The position numbers and the translations under genes are program-made. A stretch of 64,000 nucleotides of DNA from Paraspadella gotoi (lineage: Eukaryota > Animalia > Chaetognatha), in NCBI GenBank assembly GCA_051294375.1, contig CM119263.1, positions 765,756 through 829,755 on the forward strand. The letters run 5' to 3'. The notes under the pieces were generated by a model. The model did no database searches. It worked only from the letters and a program-made list of their open reading frames with translations, and was not told where the DNA came from. This document shows positions 2,139-64,000 of this stretch, piece after piece. Each line of letters starts with the position of its first letter. Within the stretch, counting starts at the first letter, position 1.

Positions 2139-3009
2139 ATTATCCATTCATTTAATAAATAAGCTATCTTGCCCCTGACTTTGGACAGGCTTTGGTGGTT
2201 TAAGGCCTCCATCACTCTTACAAGATAATGACATAGCAGGTCCCTGCAAGATTTCAATCAAGACTCTCTCACAGTCTTGTTTATTCACTCCCAGAGTACC
2301 TGGCTTCCCTATCAATGAAGTGGAAAATATTTCAAAGAATGTTTAAATTGTATGAAAAGACCACTCCCTTAAGTATTAGATCGGGGAATACTTATTGTAC
2401 TCCGCACTAGCATCAAAATACAAGGAGCTGAATTTTATGAAATTGGTACAACCAATATAAAAATTATCCATTCATTTAATAAATAAACTATCTTGCCCCT
2501 GACTTTGGACAGGCTTTGGTGGTTTAAGGCCTCCATCACTCTTACAAGATAATGACATAGCAGGTCCCTGCATGATTTCAATCAAGACTCTCTCACAGTC
2601 TTGTTTATTCACTCCCAGAGTAACTGGCTTCCCTATCAATGAAGTGGAAAATATTTCAAAGAATGTTTAAATTGTATGAAAAGACCACTCCCTTAAGTAT
2701 TAGATCGGGGAATACTTATTGTACTCCGCACTAGCATCAAAATACAAGGAGCTGAATTTTATGAAATTGGTACAACCAATATAAAAATTATCCATTCATT
2801 TAATAAATAAGCTATCTTGCCCCTGACTTTGGACAGGCTTTGGTGGTTTAAGGCCTCCATCACTCTTACAAGATAATGACATAGCAGGTCCCTGCAAGAT
2901 TTCAATCAAGACTCTCTCACAGTCTTGTTTATTCACTCCCAGAGTACCTGGCTTCCCTATCAATGAAGTGGAAAATATTTCAGAGAATGTTTAAATTGTA
3001 TGAAAAGAC
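2139..3009 (-). mobile_element. Family C tandem repeat (assembly duplicate of 399-1296); twisters at 2165-2227, 2489-2551 and 2813-2875
   Basis: Near-identical to 422-1296; period 324 bp (2438 to 2762). Confidence 0.72.
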
Positions 3010-3327
3010 TTATAATAATGAAACAAATAATTTTGCAATTTTCATAGATTAAGACTTCGATAAAGTTGATACTATGGTGGGCTAAAATCCACCAACCGTT
3101 CATCAGCGGCCATTGGTGCCGGAGGCAAGTCATTCGCCTCCCAACCCAAAGGTCGCACTTTCCACCAACAACAATTCACTGAAGAGACGCAACAGATTTC
3201 TCCCTATAGGAGGGGGGATGTATGGTGGACTAAAATCCACCAACCGTTCATCAGCAGCCATTGGTGCCGGAGGCAAGTCATTCGCCTCCCAACCCAAAGG
3301 TCCGGGGTTCTAGCCCGGTGGCCGCCT

Positions 3328-3403
3328 AGCAGTTAAGAGGGACGGGGCGCTTAACCCGCCTGTAACATTGTTTTACAGCCTGATCCGAAGCTCAGGGACT
3401 GCT
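3328..3403 (+). ncRNA. Twister ribozyme (type P5) in family A LTR
   Basis: AGCAGUU-AA-GAGG-GA-CGGG-GCGCU-UAA-CCC-GCC-UGUAA...UUACA-G-CCUGA-UCCGAAGC-UCAGG-GACUGCU. T1 CGGG/UCCG. Predicted cleavage U3352/A3353. Confidence 0.82.
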
Positions 3404-3455
3404 TATATTGAACGGTTCTGTCATTAACATATAACAATAATTGCTGTCTCTTCAT

Positions 3456-3468
3456 TGGTGAGCCCGAC
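3456..3468 (+). promoter_or_regulatory. Primer-binding site, tRNA-Trp-like (TGGTGAGCCCGAC)
   Basis: Starts 1 nt after the LTR end; resembles the tRNA-Trp PBS TGGTGACCCCGACGTGAT. Confidence 0.75.
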
Positions 3469-3669
3469 TTCCGAACACAACAGCAACAACACTTTCAGGC
3501 AACAAGCCTCAACCTGGCGATGCACTTTCCGCCAACAACTCATCAGGCGACATGCCTCAGCTTGGTGACGCACTTTCCACCAACAACAATTCACTGAAGA
3601 GACGCAACAGATTTCTCCCTACGGGAGGGGGGGATGTATGGTGGACTAAAATCCACCAACCATTCATCA

Positions 3670-3741
3670 GCGGCCATTAGTGCCGGAGGCAAGTCATTCG
3701 CCTCCCAACCCAAAGGTCCGGGGTTCTAGCCCGGTGGCCGC
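3670..3741 (+). promoter_or_regulatory. tRNA-like module (Pol III A/B-box candidate) inside family A LTR; also at 3254-3325
   Basis: 72 nt closed by GCGGCCA/TGGCCGC; tRNA-Gly(CCC)-like TTCGCCTCCCA; B-box-like GGTTCTAGCCC in a CCGGG/CCCGG stem. Confidence 0.6.
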
Positions 3742-3743
3742 CT

Positions 3744-3819
3744 AGCAGTTAAGAGGGACGGGGCGCTTAACCCGCCTGTAACATGGTGTTACAGCCTGAT
3801 CCAAAGCTCAGGGACTGCT
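3744..3819 (+). ncRNA. Twister ribozyme (type P5) in family A 3' LTR
   Basis: Same fold as 3328-3403; P3 UGUAACA/UGUUACA. Predicted cleavage U3768/A3769. Confidence 0.78.
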
Positions 3820-4183
3820 TATATTGAACAGTTCTGTCATTAACATATAACAATAATTACTGTCTCTTCAATACAAAAATAAAAATGAAGCGCTAATGAA
3901 AATTTAATATCTCTCAAAAAGTCTTTTTTGCCGGTTCGTGTAATTCAAGGAAATAAAGAACGTTTAAATTCATTTACAAAGTGATCCTACCTAATGTTAT
4001 TCTGACCGGATCCCTGCATTTTAGTTATTCCGTTTCGTTCGTCTGGAAAATTACAATCAATGTACTTATATCATCAAACGGTTTGACGTCCGAGTTCATG
4101 TTTAAATGAAAATCGGTGTATTTTTAGCTTTGTAATTTTTTTTGGATTTTCATTTGTTACATCGCAGGACGAGAAAAACTCAC

Positions 4184-4364: not shown

Positions 4365-4667
4365 ATTCTTCCCTCATGCCAACTTCCCGACACTTTTGCA
4401 AGCGACACGCCTGACACTTTCGCCGCAGCCACATGTCCATCTGCGAGATGCAGCGGCCGCCATATTTGCAGCGGTAGGACTTGTCTGCACCGCGGGTGAT
4501 TGAGCGGCGGAAGAAGCCTTTGCAGCCTTCGCAGGAGAGGGCGTTGTAGTGATACCCGGAGGCGCGGTCTCCGCAGATCAGGCACAGCTCTTCCTCGCCT
4601 TTCGTCGTCCCGTGTTTTCCCAAAGCAGCGCGACCTTTCTTTGAGCTGACGACGAACTTACTCGGAT
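4365..4667 (-). CDS. EcR: NR1H/EcR-like nuclear receptor, C4 zinc-finger DNA-binding-domain exon (copy 1)
   Basis: KKG...[34 protein letters not shown]...CKYGGRC...[24 protein letters not shown] acceptor, GTGAGT donor, 303 nt, phase 1-1. Confidence 0.92.
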
Positions 4668-5001
4668 CTAGGAATCGAAAATTAAGTTTAAGGTTGAAAT
4701 GAGATGAATTTATTATAAATATGAATTTAAATATGAATTTAAAATAAAAAGAAATTAAGATATAAACGCATAAAAGCTATTTTAAATTACTTAGTTAGTA
4801 TTTTTATTATTTAAAATTATGATGTTTTATCAGTAAAATTTAGCAAAACTAGTAAAATTACGAAATGATAAAAAACGATAATGATTTTGTAATTTTTGAT
4901 TCATTTATTATGAATTTTTTTAAAATTTGTAATTATAACATATATTCTGGTGGTCCTATCACCACAGATGGATTAAAGCTGTTTCTCTCGCAGCGCCTCA
5001 G

Positions 5002-5052
5002 TGGCTCAGTGGACTAATGCACCATCCCAATGTGCGTCCCTGGTTCGAGCCC
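5002..5052 (+). promoter_or_regulatory. Pol III type-2 internal promoter candidate (A box TGGCTCAGTGG, B box GGTTCGAGCCC) in family B LTR
   Basis: Near-consensus A and B boxes with tRNA-like spacing, flanked by a GCCTCAG/CTGAGGT acceptor-like stem; repeated in the 3' LTR. Confidence 0.72.
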
Positions 5053-5060
5053 TGAGGTTG

Positions 5061-5141
5061 TCATGTAGAAAGTGGGATGGACCGGGTAACCCGCCTGTAG
5101 GCATGGGCCTACTGCCAGATCCAAAGCTCTGGACTACATGA
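5061..5141 (+). ncRNA. Twister ribozyme (type P5) in family B 5' LTR
   Basis: P5 UCAUGUAG/CUACAUGA; GUGG-GA-UGGA-CCGGG-UAA-CCC-GCC; P3 GUAGGC/GCCUAC; P4 CCAGA/UCUGG with loop UCCAAAGC; T1 UGGA/UCCA. Predicted cleavage U5087/A5088. Confidence 0.85.
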
Positions 5142-5213
5142 ACATGCTGTCTCGCTGTCGCCACGAGGTGACACCGCTGCGGGTGTGGCGCCCTGTAAAA
5201 CCAGCCTCTTCAA

Positions 5214-5245
5214 TGGTGAGCCCGACGTGATATGAACACGCAACC
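5214..5245 (+). promoter_or_regulatory. Extended tRNA-Trp primer-binding site
   Basis: TGGTGAGCCCGACGTGAT-A-TGAACACGCAACC versus the reverse complement of the metazoan tRNA-Trp 3' end as I recall it, TGGTGACCCCGACGTGAT-T-TGAACACGCAACC. Confidence 0.85.
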
Positions 5246-5514
5246 CGGGCATGATAATACTCCTCTGCCCTTGATGTGGTTTGAGCTACGCAGCTGCCAC
5301 TCAAAGCAAGGCCACCAGAATGAAGAGAGGTTCAGCGGAGAGACATGCGCTTCATCCCCCTGCTTCGTACTCTCATATGCGAGAGTCCTGGGGCGGCTGT
5401 CTGGTGGTCCTATCACCACAGATGGATTAAAGCTGTTTCTCTCGCAGTGCCTCAGTGGCTCAGTGGACTAATGCACCATCCCAATGTGCGTCCCTGGTTC
5501 GAGCCCTGAGGTTG

Positions 5515-5595
5515 TCATGTAGAAAGTGGGATGGACCGGGTAACCCGCCTGTAGGCATGGGCCTACTGCCAGATCCAAAGCTCTGGACTACATGA
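5515..5595 (+). ncRNA. Twister ribozyme (type P5) in family B 3' LTR
   Basis: Identical to 5061-5141. Predicted cleavage U5541/A5542. Confidence 0.85.
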
Positions 5596-5883
5596 ACATG
5601 CTGTCTCGCTGTCGCCACGAGGTGACACCGCTGCGGGTGTGGCGCCCTGTAAAACCAGCCTCTTCAATATCTAAATTTTTTTTTTAGCTATCAAAATTCA
5701 AAACTCGTAAATAAAATGACTTAATTCCAATTGGATCATTGTGGACTCAAAAAAAAAAGTAGTAAACAGAGAAAAGAATTTCATTGCAGAAAGTTTTATA
5801 TAGCAATTCCCTGTCTCTTTACTTAAATGATAGTAAATAAATGTTAAAATCGTGATACGGGAATTCCTCTTCACCGCCCTTAC

Positions 5884-7539: not shown

Positions 7540-8343
7540 TTTCCAGGAGATGCGTCAATGGTTTGTACGTAATTGAACTTATTTTCCCAAAACGCCCCTT
7601 TTCAACTTGAAATTCGGAATGGAATAAGTTTTTTTGGTTTAGAATTTAGCTTAAAGGTTCGGATTAAGGATTAGGCTACAAATTAAGTTTAGGTTTAAGT
7701 TAATAATTAGGGTTGGAGATTAGGGTAACGGATTAAGCCTAAAATTTAAAGATAAGGCCTAATCTTTAAATAGGGTTAAGGTAAGGGTTAAAAATTGAGT
7801 TAGGATTAGAGACTAAAAATAAGGTTTATATCATACCTTTTGAACTAAATTAGAATTGAAAGTAAATTTACGAATTAAGGAACAGAAATGTGGCGCTTTT
7901 GGTAAAGAGAGCACAAGTACTTTTCGGGAGATTTATACTGTTTGGTTTTATTGTTTATTCGCGAGTTCGAAAGACAAAGTGACTTTAACGTCGAAGAAAA
8001 ACAGAAGGTCGTCGACGCTGGGATTCGAACCCGGGACGACGACTTCGGTTCGCCGGCCTCTCGAGTCGGCGCCCTTTCGGGCGACGCCGGCGGAGAAAAG
8101 AGGGCGCCGATCGGGGGGAAGAGTCGATGACGCCGGTTCTAGAGCGAGAGAGAGAGAGAGAAAGAGATGGAGACGGAGTCGTGGAGGAGTTTGAAGGGTC
8201 GACGGACGGCCAGACGTACTGAGGGTTCTTTGCCCCGAGGTCGTCCTCCTCGCGAGTTGGCGACCTCGAGCGGATGATCGGAAGACGATTCCAGAGTCGA
8301 AGGGGAGAGAAGCGGGAGGTCAAGATCTTGGATCATATGTTGG

Positions 8344-12687: not shown

Positions 12688-12760
12688 CTTTGATCAAAAG
12701 AATCACTCGGCTAAATATTTCTCACACTTATATCACGATGAAGTCACTCCGAATACTCAC

Positions 12761-13063
12761 ATTCTTCCCTCATGCCAACTTCCCGACACTTTTGCAAGCG
12801 ACACGCCTGACACTTTCGCCGCAGCCACATGTCCATCTGCGAGATGCAGCGGCCGCCATATTTGCAGCGGTAGGACTTGTCTGCACCGCGGGTGATTGAG
12901 CGGCGGAAGAAGCCTTTGCAGCCTTCGCAGGAGAGGGCGTTGTAGTGATACCCGGAGGCGCGGTCTCCGCAGATCAGGCACAGCTCTTCCTCGCCTTTCG
13001 TCGTCCCGTGTTTTCCCAAAGCAGCGCGACCTTTCTTTGAGCTGACGACGAACTTACTCGGAT
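12761..13063 (-). CDS. EcR: NR1H/EcR-like DBD exon (copy 2)
   Basis: Identical to 4365-4667. Confidence 0.88.
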
Positions 13064-13340: not shown

Positions 13341-14060
13341 TCTGGTGGTCCTATCACCACAGATGGATTAAAGCTGTTTTCTCTCGCAGCGCCTCAGTGG
13401 CTCAGTGGACTAATGCACCATCCCAATGTGCGTCCCTGGTTCGAGCCCTGAGGTTGTCATGTAGAAAGTGGGATGGACCGGGTAACCCGCCTGTAGGCAT
13501 GGGCCTACTGCCAGATCCAAAGCTCTGGACTACATGAACATGCTGTCTCGCTGTCGCCACGAGGTGACACCGCTGCGGGTGTGGCGCCCTGTAAAACCAG
13601 CCTCTTCAATGGTGAGCCCGACGTGATATGAACACGCAACCCGGGCATGATAATACTCCTCTGCCCTTGATGTGGTTTGAGCTACGCAGCTGCCACTCAA
13701 AGCAAGGCCACCAGAATGAAGAGAGGTTCAGCGGAGAGACATGCGCTTCATCCCCTGCTTCGTACTCTCATATGCGAGAGTCCTGGGGCGGCTGTCTGGT
13801 GGTCCTATCACCACAGATGGATTAAAGCTGTTTCTCTCGCAGTGCCTCAGTGGCTCAGTGGACTAATGCACCATCCCAATGTGCGTCCCTGGTTCGAGCC
13901 CTGAGGTTGTCATGTAGAAAGTGGGATGGACCGGGTAACCCGCCTGTAGGCATGGGCCTACTGCCAGATCCAAAGCTCTGGACTACATGAACATGCTGTC
14001 TCGCTGTCGCCACGAGGTGACACCGCTGCGGTGTGGCGCCCTGTAAAACCAGCCTCTTCA
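13341..14060 (+). mobile_element. Family B twister LTR element (duplicate of 4946-5666); twisters at 13457-13537 and 13910-13990
   Basis: Same LTR/PBS/TSD structure and the same flanks. Confidence 0.85.
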
Positions 14061-15928: not shown

Positions 15929-17779
15929 TTTCCAGGAGATGCGTCAATGGTTTGTACGTAATTGAACTTATTTTCCCAAAACGCCCCTTTTCAACTTGAA
16001 ATTCGGAATGGAATAAGTTTTTTTGGTTTAGAATTTAGCTTAAAGGTTCGGATTAAGGATTAGGCTACAAATTAAGTTTAGGTTTAAGTTAATAATTAGG
16101 GTTGGAGATTAGGGTAACGGATTAAGCCTAAAATTTAAAGATAAGGCCTAATCTTTAAATAGGGTTTAAGGTAAGGGTTAAAAATTGAGTTAGGATTAGA
16201 GACTAAAAATAAGGTTTATATCATACCTTTTGAACTAAATTAGAATTGAAAGTAAATTTACGAATTAAGGAACAGAAATGTGGCGCTTTTGGTAAAGAGA
16301 GCACAAGTACTTTTCGGGAGATTTATACTGTTTGGTTTTATTGTTTATTCGCGAGTTCGAAAGACAAAGTGACTTTAACGGTCGAAGAAAAACAGAAGGT
16401 CGTCGACGCTGGGATTCGAACCCGGGACGACGACTTCGGTTCGCCGGCCTCTCGAGTCGGCGCCCTTTCGGCGACGCCGGCGGAGAAAAGAGGGCGCCGA
16501 TCGGGGGGAAGAGTCGATGACGCCGGTTCTAGAGCGAACGAGAGAGAGAGAGAGAAAGAGATGGAGACGGAGTCGTGGAGGAGTTTGAAGGGTCGACGGA
16601 CGGCCAGACGTACTGAGGGTTCTTTGCCCCGAGGTCGTCCTCCTCGCGAGTTGGCGACCTCGAGCGGATGATCGGAAGACGATTCCAGAGTCGAAGGGGA
16701 GAGAAGCGGGAGGTCAAGATCTTGGATCATATGTTGGGACGCGAAGAGGACGCGAAGAGGACGCGAAGAGGATGCGGAGAGGACGCGAAGAGGACGCGAA
16801 GAGGACGCGAAGAGGATGCGAAGAGGAAGCGTTTGAATTGGAAGTGAAGAGAATGGATAGAAAATCTTAAACGAAAAAAATATTTCAATTATAGTCATTA
16901 TTTTAATTAATAATTTCAAAAAAGTCTTCAAATAATTATTATTTAGATTTACATTAGGAATTAAGAAGGAATTAAGGAATTAAGCAATTAATTGCCATTA
17001 TTAAGAAGTGAACAAATATTTTATAAGGAACTATGCGCATTTCTCTATGCGCGTTAATCTTATTGAATTTTATTCATTAATTGGTTACGAATACTTTACC
17101 ATTTAATAAACAACCAATATAAAAATTAATTTATTAATCTTGCTTCTATTTGGACAATGGACAGTTGGTTAAAACCTTCATCTTTCAAGATAAAAACATA
17201 GAAGGACTTCAGAACCCAACAATTTTTTTAATCAAAACTCTACTACTAATTAGGTGGGTATTTAAGTTTGTTTACCATAGAAAGTATAAATAAAAACAAA
17301 ATTATCAAAAAATAGTAGGAAGCGTGAGCATTGAGCATTTTACCAACTGAAAACTTAATATTTTTTGAGGTTATAGGAAAACAAAAATTAGATTTCGACA
17401 ACTGAGTAGAACTATGGACGCCGTTTCTCCAGCGCTAAAGCGGCGCTCTTTCGACTTCCGGCGTCGATTCATCCTCCTCGGCGTCACTTTCGCGCAACTT
17501 TCCCCGTAGAAATGACGCCTCCTTATTGGTCGATAGCGCGCCGACGTCGCCGATGAAAAGACCGTACCCGATTGGTCGGAGAGATAAGACGCACGACTCC
17601 GATTGGACGAAGAGATCGTGAGAAAGCGGATAAGATCTCTCGAAGCGACGAAATCTCGGCCGCTGATTGGTCCGCACGGATTCCAGGGGAAAAAAAAGAA
17701 CATCGTCGCAACCGGGACGCGAAAATCTATCGCTCGACTCTCGGGGGAGAAAAAGCGAAGCGGGAAATTGAGCGGAGAA

Positions 17780-63758: not shown

Positions 63759-63871
63759 ATCTTGAAAAAGGGATGGGGCCCTTAAGCCAGCATCGCCTGT
63801 CAAAAGTCAGGAGTAAGATAGATTATTTATTAAATGAATGGATAATTATTACATTGGTTGTAGTAATTTCA
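63759..63871 (+). mobile_element. Diverged family C-related fragment with a degenerate twister (redundant copy of 33520-33638)
   Basis: P5 AUCUUG/UAAGAU, GA-UGG-GGCCCU-UAA, P4 CCUG/CAGG with loop UCAAAAGU; ends AATTTCA. Confidence 0.6.
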
Positions 63872-64000
63872 TTGAGAAGAATTTACGTTGGCGTCGATAT
63901 CGTCATTGTCGTCGTCTTCTTCACCGTCGTCGTCGTCGTCGTCGTCGTCGTTCTTTTCTCTTTTCTCTTATGGTTTTCGCTGGATTTCTCTTCTTGAACT

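Follow-up and report, generated by a model that had tools for sequence, protein, structure and literature searches.

The 64-kb stretch of Paraspadella gotoi DNA analysed here (the window) contains, at 4946-5666, a 721-bp island of 56% GC within AT-rich DNA, and the question is what kind of mobile element it represents and how such an element might be propagated. A preliminary description had proposed a new class of element, a miniature LTR retrotransposon with a complete type-P5 twister ribozyme in each LTR. On the reading favoured here (probability about 0.55), the element, termed family B, is of the Helenus type, carries a predicted twister lacking stem P1 in each LTR, and likely moves as a retrozyme.

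Anatomy of the element and its relatives in the window

The island is a real non-autonomous, gene-less miniature LTR retrotransposon, with the following parts.

4942-4945, no strand: left target-site duplication (TSD) ATAT, identical to 5667-5670
4946-5212, + strand: 5' LTR of 267 bp, starting with TC (not TG) and ending with CA, delimited by sequence comparison and contig ends
4990-5060 (start approximate), + strand: tRNA-like head, a predicted Pol III internal promoter, with box A at 5002-5012 and box B at 5042-5052
5061-5141, + strand: predicted twister in P5 order, without P1, by comparison with the Rfam RF02684 consensus
5213-5399, + strand: non-coding internal region of 187 bp between the LTRs
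5214-5231, + strand: primer-binding site (PBS) for tRNA-Trp, 1 nt past the LTR, 17/18 match
5390-5399, + strand: G-rich tract (putative plus-strand primer, 5390-5397), then a TG that is missing at the integrated left end
5400-5666, + strand: 3' LTR, with a second head (boxes at 5456 and 5496), a second predicted twister (5515-5595) and a predicted cut at U5541^A5542
5667-5670, no strand: right TSD ATAT, identical to 4942-4945
5676-5685, + strand: run of ten T in flanking host DNA, belonging to this insertion only, the first site past the head at which Pol III might terminate

The two LTRs agree at 266 of 267 bases (single mismatch C4994/T5448), and the longest stop-free frame of the element is 85 aa; inspection by eye of the 96 ORFs of the window revealed none resembling a reverse transcriptase. 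The PBS, TGGTGAGCCCGACGTGAT, matches the 3' end of tRNA-Trp (Kojima Fig. S2) and its motif occurs four times in the window, against 0.07 expected, while the G-rich tract directly ahead of the right LTR, GGGGCGGC, is not pure purine. Taken alone, the ATAT duplication would be a weak signal in so AT-rich a flank; it is backed by a sister family (family A), whose corresponding borders show ATAC duplicated, likewise 4 bp, so that paired TSDs are documented for two independent insertions. The predicted unit between the two cut sites, 5088-5541, is 454 nt long by coordinates, and most copies seen in sequencing reads have one additional C and one additional G (about 456 nt), the latter in the G-rich tract at 5390-5399. 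The preliminary description is thus borne out in its account of the anatomy, including the length and non-coding nature of the element, its near-identical LTRs, the tRNA-Trp PBS, the G-rich tract, the TSD and the 454-nt unit.

The relatives of the element in the window are as follows.

13341-14060, + strand: second family B copy, inside an 8.4-kb duplication
3073-3870, + strand: family A element, with LTR starts at 3073 (truncated), 3221 and 3637, all inside one ATAC duplication
3328-3403 and 3744-3819, + strand: predicted twisters of family A, giving a 416-nt unit
3456, + strand: Trp PBS of family A, with the same start as the family B PBS
1360-2113, + strand: duplicate of the family A element, interrupted by an assembly gap

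The copy at 13341-14060 has the same flanks as that at 4946-5666 and lies within the duplication; it is therefore not a second insertion, and the window shows a single family B insertion. Family A has its parts in the same order, with LTR ends TCTCTTCA; in the 3073-3870 element a deletion fuses the first LTR to the internal region, and the internal region contains a 48-bp tandem repeat. In both families TG precedes the internal LTR copy and is absent from the integrated left end (4944-4947, 3071-3074), which begins with TC or TA (one per family), in agreement with the left boundary at 4946 that had been proposed. The missing left TG would fit an integrase that trims 2 nt from the end of the cDNA.

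Assignment to the Helenus (TRIMp3) group

Helenus elements are TRIMs with a tRNA-like segment in the LTR, a PBS and a polypurine tract (PPT), and 4-bp TSDs in animals, defined in the passages of Kojima 2024 (PMC10886601) that describe the group by two LTRs, a length of 311-1263 bp, a box A of the form TRGCY..YGG and a box B GGTTC. The preliminary description had missed the corresponding head in family B, where box A (TGGCTCAGTGG at 5002) and box B (GGTTCGAGCCC at 5042) are present in each LTR. A strict box B pattern is confined on the + strand of the window to the four family B LTRs; the matching segment of family A has a cloverleaf-like fold, in which an acceptor-like stem of 7 bp is accompanied by a hairpin like a T arm. 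ARAGORN called no tRNA, and the head, with boxes at 5002-5012 and 5042-5052, is tRNA-like and not a called tRNA. The remaining characters also agree: 721 bp with LTRs identical at 266/267 positions and stop-free frames of at most 85 aa, a Trp PBS matching at 17/18 with a G-rich tract at 5390-5397, and 4-bp TSDs (ATAT in family B, ATAC in family A). The head in each LTR thus points to a Helenus-type TRIM, and family B fits this group (TRIMp3) by the published criteria, the likeness being one of layout; what had been put forward as a new element class appears instead to be a ribozyme-bearing variant of a known one. Pol III transcription of the published Helenus elements is described as unvalidated in the parts of that paper bearing on it.

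Family B and Helenus/TRIMp3 elements are both short non-coding TRIMs with tRNA-like boxes A and B in the LTR, a PBS, a PPT and, in animals, a 4-bp TSD. They differ in that the family B head is placed within the first half of its LTR, where box B leaves 160 nt still to come, is not succeeded by a T run, and belongs to an element whose left end is TC (TA in family A). All animal entries of Kojima DataS1 (PMC10886601) were inspected by eye: in most, the head is near the 3' end of the LTR and a T run usually comes next, except in the fish families, which have none; in most wasp and bivalve entries, a T run is present after box B. In family B, no run of T>=4 is found on the + strand within the element, an absence with a 28% chance of arising.

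No twister was seen by eye in the animal DataS1 entries, in agreement with a motif search, which misses motifs split between lines. Two entries from Synergus wasps, Helenus-2_SyJa and Helenus-2_SyUm, combine a Trp PBS with a hammerhead after box B, consisting by eye of CTGATGA and GAAA cores, a GTC site and stems of 7, 4 and 6 bp, stem III being open; it is apparently of type III, and its loops I and II are complementary over 12 nt. The Synergus elements and family B thus share the Trp PBS and differ in having a hammerhead and a predicted twister, respectively. In the paper text of Kojima 2024 (PMC10886601), as far as covered here, no ribozyme of Helenus is named. By analogy, these elements suggest that a ribozyme after the head may be a recurring design in Trp-primed Helenus, and that ribozyme-bearing Helenus may form a wider group. 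In family B itself, neither strand contains CTGANGA, and no Rfam hammerhead was found.

A Trp PBS and a 4-bp TSD are also features of the CsRn1 clade of Gypsy elements (PMC2582038, in the part describing the clade), and the presence of both in family B upholds the link to CsRn1-type elements drawn in the preliminary description.

Structure of the predicted twister

The predicted motif of the 5' LTR, all on the + strand, consists of the following parts.

5061-5068/5134-5141: P5 stem, predicted pairing
5072, 5074, 5075/5090-5092: P2, 3 bp with a bulge
5076-5077: conserved GA
5078-5081/5120-5123: pseudoknot T1, UGGA against UCCA in the loop, 4/4 pairs
5087-5089: UAA, with the predicted cut at U5087^A5088 (N^A position)
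5093-5094/5126-5127: pseudoknot T2, GC against GC in the loop, 2/2 Watson-Crick pairs
5097-5102/5107-5112: P3, a stem without counterpart in the Rfam model
5115-5119/5128-5132: P4, 5 bp with an 8-nt loop L4

The core motifs (GA, UAA, GC, the 8-nt L4 and both pseudoknots) occur in the P5 order of Rfam RF02684, and L4 is identical to the Rfam P5 consensus at 7 of 8 positions. The departures are a 5-nt linker (5082-5086, forming at most 1 bp) in place of P1, where the consensus has an 8-bp hairpin, and a P2 5' strand of 3 nt vs 4 nt in the consensus. The claim of a complete type-P5 fold therefore stands for the core motifs and pseudoknots and fails for P1, which is absent, and for P2, which is reduced to 3 bp; similarly, a twister oriented like the PBS had been claimed for each LTR, and the motif is present in both with that orientation, but the full fold is not. 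The cut positions proposed earlier, U5087/A5088 and U5541/A5542, hold as predicted sites.

Rfam searches gave no twister at the gathering score on the element, and none at E<=10 on the element, the 96-nt motif or family A, so that the covariance-model match to twister-P5 that had been suggested as a check did not materialise; the RF02684 threshold is 37.6 bits, and a bacterial positive control scored 54.9 bits. No tRNA or other credible family was found, with weak matches such as PyrR205 far below the cut-off. The miss likely results from the lost P1, the 3-nt P2 strand and the extra P3. Published tests found P1 to be dispensable and P2 defects to be tolerated, and the pseudoknots and catalytic bases to be sensitive.

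ViennaRNA folds P5, P3 and P4 directly, with probabilities of at least 0.93 in the circle, one terminal pair excepted. With pseudoknots left out of account, a P2 register displaced by one base comes out 6 kcal/mol more stable than the canonical one; in this register, G5076 and the T2 bases are buried. Pairing of the head loop (5022-5029) with the GA strand (5073-5080), an 8-bp match, has a probability of 0 in the nested fold.

Conservation and specificity of the motif

Between families B and A, 14/14 core positions are identical, vs 42/65 and 44/65 of the other motif positions (about 65%), a contrast with p values of 0.008 and 0.016. The P5 sequences differ between the families, yet pair over 8 bp and 7 bp. 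In all, 82 of 84 cells expected to pair do so, with double changes in T1 and P4, and slid controls pair in 26-48%; the covariation is not significant, its observed level being reached by 68 of 500 shuffles (5 distinct rows). T1 pairs at 4/4 positions in family B, has one double change in the family A 5' LTR and contains a C-A mismatch in the family A 3' LTR. Variants found in reads cluster in the linker, at N-1 and in the P3 loop, or are wobbles (5111, 5115, 5127); a third read variant differs in the linker, at N-1, in P3 and by a wobble in P4, and none of its listed changes falls in GA, AA or CCCGCC. Some low-depth read contigs disrupt pairs.

A descriptor of our own matched 6 of 8 LTR motifs and nothing else in the 64 kb, missing two family A 3' LTRs that carry the C-A in T1. 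Its background was one match in 20,000 LTR shuffles, one in 30 window shuffles and 0/46 control loci. It was composed after the motif had been seen, and of 8 Rfam P5 loci its strict form recovers only 1 (2/8 when loosened); it thus shows specificity and not family membership. In both Rfam-positive loci that it parses, P1 is a hairpin of 13-21 nt and the P2 strand has 4 nt. Of 19 pattern-scan matches in metagenome contigs, all were rejected as chance (P4 of 0-2 bp), and a pattern scan of viral contigs gave 0 matches. A scan of genome contigs for the positive control gave one Rfam match among 20 of 28 loci scanned. Separately, three Rfam twister-P5 matches (L051, L054, L055) spaced about 485 bp apart were observed on one bacterial contig (G251:C47:21577-22598), a tandem layout that could release unit RNAs.

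Folding of the unit circles is more favourable than that of shuffled sequences (z -2.2 and -3.4). Overall, the motif is likely to be a real twister, possibly a slow one.

Insertion sites and evidence from sequencing runs

The stretch was found in 10 public runs from 4 studies, 9 of which contain half or more of its words; no run containing the stretch is recorded as RNA. In run X1, 1,176 contigs aligned, with summed depth of 12,000-75,000 within the element vs about 20-70 in most flank bins, and in run X5, 989 contigs aligned; the read-contig depths in these runs are not copy numbers. Loose contig ends stop at 4945/4946 and 5212-5214 in many contigs, and in X5 unrelated flanks are present before 4945/4946 (7 and 8 contigs) and after 5212-5214 (10, 10 and 7 contigs; agreement 0.45-0.52). 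Family B is clearly highly repeated, with many different insertion sites, and the further copies that the preliminary description had proposed to look for are seen as distinct flanks at both LTR ends. No empty-site joint was found in the 4 runs inspected.

In runs X3 and X9, spliced host mRNA is present together with element contigs that bridge the cut site by 87/125 nt and 45/54 nt, respectively. These contigs are not decisive, as bridging is expected from RNA that is uncut or religated as well as from carried-over DNA, and the circle junction has the sequence of the LTR, so contigs containing it look like LTR. Several candidates for circle evidence were discounted. A 424-nt contig of X6 passes through both LTR borders, and the LTR-to-internal depth ratio is near 1 in X3 and X6 and 3 or more in X7 and X9, but DNA of a high-copy repeat would give the same picture in both cases; contigs also break at 5073-5102, around the cut site as centre, for which common variants at 5103-5105 are the simpler explanation. 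The biofilm run X10 contains only short look-alike pieces at low depth.

A 3,622-nt contig of X9, at depth 160, aligns with window 5051-5134; its twister-like motif has diverged, no tRNA head adjoins the motif, and a homolog of the downstream hairpin is present; it is a candidate for a longer or autonomous relative, or for a host transcript with an insert.

Proposed propagation and alternative explanations

In the proposed mechanism, Pol III would start near 4990 from boxes A and B and read to the first T run past the 3' LTR; no T4 lies in the path of such a transcript within the element, and it would end at the flanking T10. Both predicted twisters would cut (5087/5088 and 5541/5542), and the unit RNA thereby released, about 455 nt long, would lack a terminal repeat and end in a 5'-OH and a cyclic phosphate. 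A 454-nt unit RNA without terminal repeat could not be copied by ordinary strand transfer, a difficulty that ligation by RtcB would solve: RtcB would join the ends, and the circle would rest partly in the register-shifted P2 that hides G5076. tRNA-Trp would then prime a CsRn1-type Gypsy reverse transcriptase on the circle, which would run more than once round it, so rebuilding both LTRs, and the integrase of the partner would trim 2 nt (the left TG) and insert the product with a 4-bp duplication. A double cut leaving no R region is the reason given for circles in plant retrozymes (PMC4918200, in its treatment of the RNA), and RtcB circularises both animal retrozyme RNA in vitro (PMC7229834, in the relevant part) and twister-flanked Pol III RNA in cells (bioRxiv 10.1101/2020.09.11.294140, likewise). 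Counting against this explanation are the missing Rfam match, the absent P1 and 3-nt P2 strand, the non-significant covariation, the T1 mismatch in family A, the more stable shifted P2, and the pairing of most of the PBS in the predicted circle.

The most serious alternative, to which we would give roughly one chance in four, is that an active but slow twister replaces the T-run terminator, yielding RNAs that keep the 5' LTR site intact and are cut at the 3' one. Such RNAs would span about 4990-5541 with a terminal repeat of about 100 nt, and would be copied by ordinary strand transfer, circles being absent or by-products. The ribozyme indeed sits just past box B, at the T-run position of most wasp and bivalve Helenus (by eye), in an element devoid of T>=4, and the weak P2, missing P1 and competing register all predict slow cutting. 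The bridging contigs of X3 and X9, found with spliced host mRNA, would also follow, but they are equally expected of a religated circle or of library DNA, and the motif is identical in the two LTR copies, so that the 5' site would not be spared for long. The read data cannot tell this leaky terminator apart from the circle model.

It is rather improbable that the motif is a non-cleaving relic, or a structure for packaging or stability, in a plain Helenus TRIM. That view would account for the missing covariance-model match, the two departures from natural P5 twisters, the non-significant covariation and the T1 mismatch in one family A LTR; it sits poorly with the retention of unpaired catalytic positions and both pseudoknots while other positions are about 65% alike, and with the hammerhead in the same place in wasp relatives. 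Very improbable is a SINE-like, tRNA-headed non-LTR retrozyme in which a 1.6-unit tandem copy mimics LTRs, as might be suggested by the combination of tRNA head and ribozyme (as in schistosome hammerhead SINEs), the left end without TG and the G-rich tract that is not pure purine. Against it stand the PBS 1 nt past the CA end in both families, the G tract preceding the LTR start, the 4-bp duplications and the sharp ends shared across many contigs, while animal non-LTR retrozymes are described in the pertinent part of PMC7229834 as having no PBS or PPT and longer TSDs. The family A copy with three LTRs is no proof of a circle, since the zebrafish Helenus LTR-11_DR, in which no ribozyme was seen by eye, forms tandem arrays as well.

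Relation to known ribozyme-bearing elements

The favoured Helenus-type retrozyme is paralleled by the plant LTR retrozymes, which, in the sections of PMC4918200 on their structure, are like family B non-coding elements with a PPT and a 4-bp TSD. They have, as is predicted for family B, a ribozyme per LTR oriented like the PBS; their unit RNA lacks R after the double cut, as that of family B would, and a Gypsy partner is inferred. The plant elements have a type III hammerhead, a tRNA-Met PBS and 600-1000-nt circles shown experimentally (PMC4918200, same sections), whereas family B is from an animal and has a twister-like motif, a Trp PBS, a unit of about 455 nt, a Pol III-type head and circles that are only predicted; in plant retrozymes, the corresponding portion of a 2020 review recognised no promoter. 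Family B accordingly shows the LTR-PBS-PPT layout, 4-bp TSD and non-coding character of LTR retrozymes, with a twister-like motif of PBS sense in both LTRs as its putative self-cleaving motif, and not the hammerhead per LTR.

Animal non-LTR retrozymes have in common with family B the animal host and, if the predicted cuts take place, a small ribozyme-bounded unit and RtcB-compatible ends, and differ in their type I hammerhead, tandem repeats, lack of LTR, PBS and PPT, and longer TSDs (PMC7229834, in its descriptive part). An association of twister variants with an animal retrotransposon is reported for Perere-3 (Liu et al. 2021, PMC8501958), an autonomous non-LTR element with one 5' ribozyme. 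Relative to twister P5 (RF02684), the order of GA, T1, UAA, P2, T2 and P4/L4 is common, and family B has no P1 hairpin, a 3-bp P2 and an additional P3, and lies below Rfam detection. The Tornado system combines, as would family B, a Pol III transcript, two twisters and RtcB ligation to a circle (bioRxiv 10.1101/2020.09.11.294140); as outlined there, it is engineered, uses an external U6 promoter and loses its ribozymes from the circle, unlike the family B circle, whose junction would recreate one permuted twister.

Neither an LTR element with a twister nor a ribozyme in Helenus was found in searches of the open-access PMC and bioRxiv literature, and the earlier statement that no LTR+PBS+TSD element using twister is known finds no contradiction there. 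Animal retrozymes are stated to lack LTR, PBS and PPT in the parts of PMC7761336 and PMC7229834 that characterise them, the former also mentioning unpublished type III hammerheads in insects; twisters are reported in non-LTR elements, with 5' trimming the only role in retrotransposons shown in the accounts concerned. As far as these searches go, plants are the only organisms in which the layout has been described, and with a different ribozyme (hammerhead). A broader proposal, at even odds, is that animals harbour Pol III-driven LTR retrozymes, a natural Tornado design, in which the ribozyme slot in a Trp-primed lineage of Helenus takes either a P1-less, circularly permuted twister, as here, or a hammerhead, as in the Synergus wasps, and abundant circles of 416-456 nt are copied by Gypsy elements. 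If this is true, an animal LTR element with a twister per LTR would link Pol III TRIMs and ribozyme circles; the twister would gain a defined job; and a natural minimal permuted twister missed by Rfam would imply that more are probably hidden. With promoter, cut sites and primer known, so short an element would also allow one to ask whether a circle templates an LTR-type reverse transcriptase, which for plant retrozymes is still only a model in the accounts consulted.

Other features of the window

Near-identical tandem duplications (98-99%) are present at 3833-12226/12227-20573 and 424-2113/2139-3833, one of them beside an assembly gap, and may be assembly artefacts. A 324-bp tandem repeat (about 2.8 copies) occurs at 398-1296 and 2139-3009, with an inverted relative at 63759-63872. 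Outside the elements, a perfect box B motif occurs on the - strand at 8021-8031 and 16412-16422, and is possibly a SINE or tRNA remnant. An exon resembling the DNA-binding exon of the ecdysone receptor is present at 4365-4598 (- strand), with a duplicate near 12760-12995; its best matches are mostly spiralian, up to about 80%, and the exons adjoining it in spliced contigs are absent from the window. The elements of families A and B both lie on the strand opposite to this exon.
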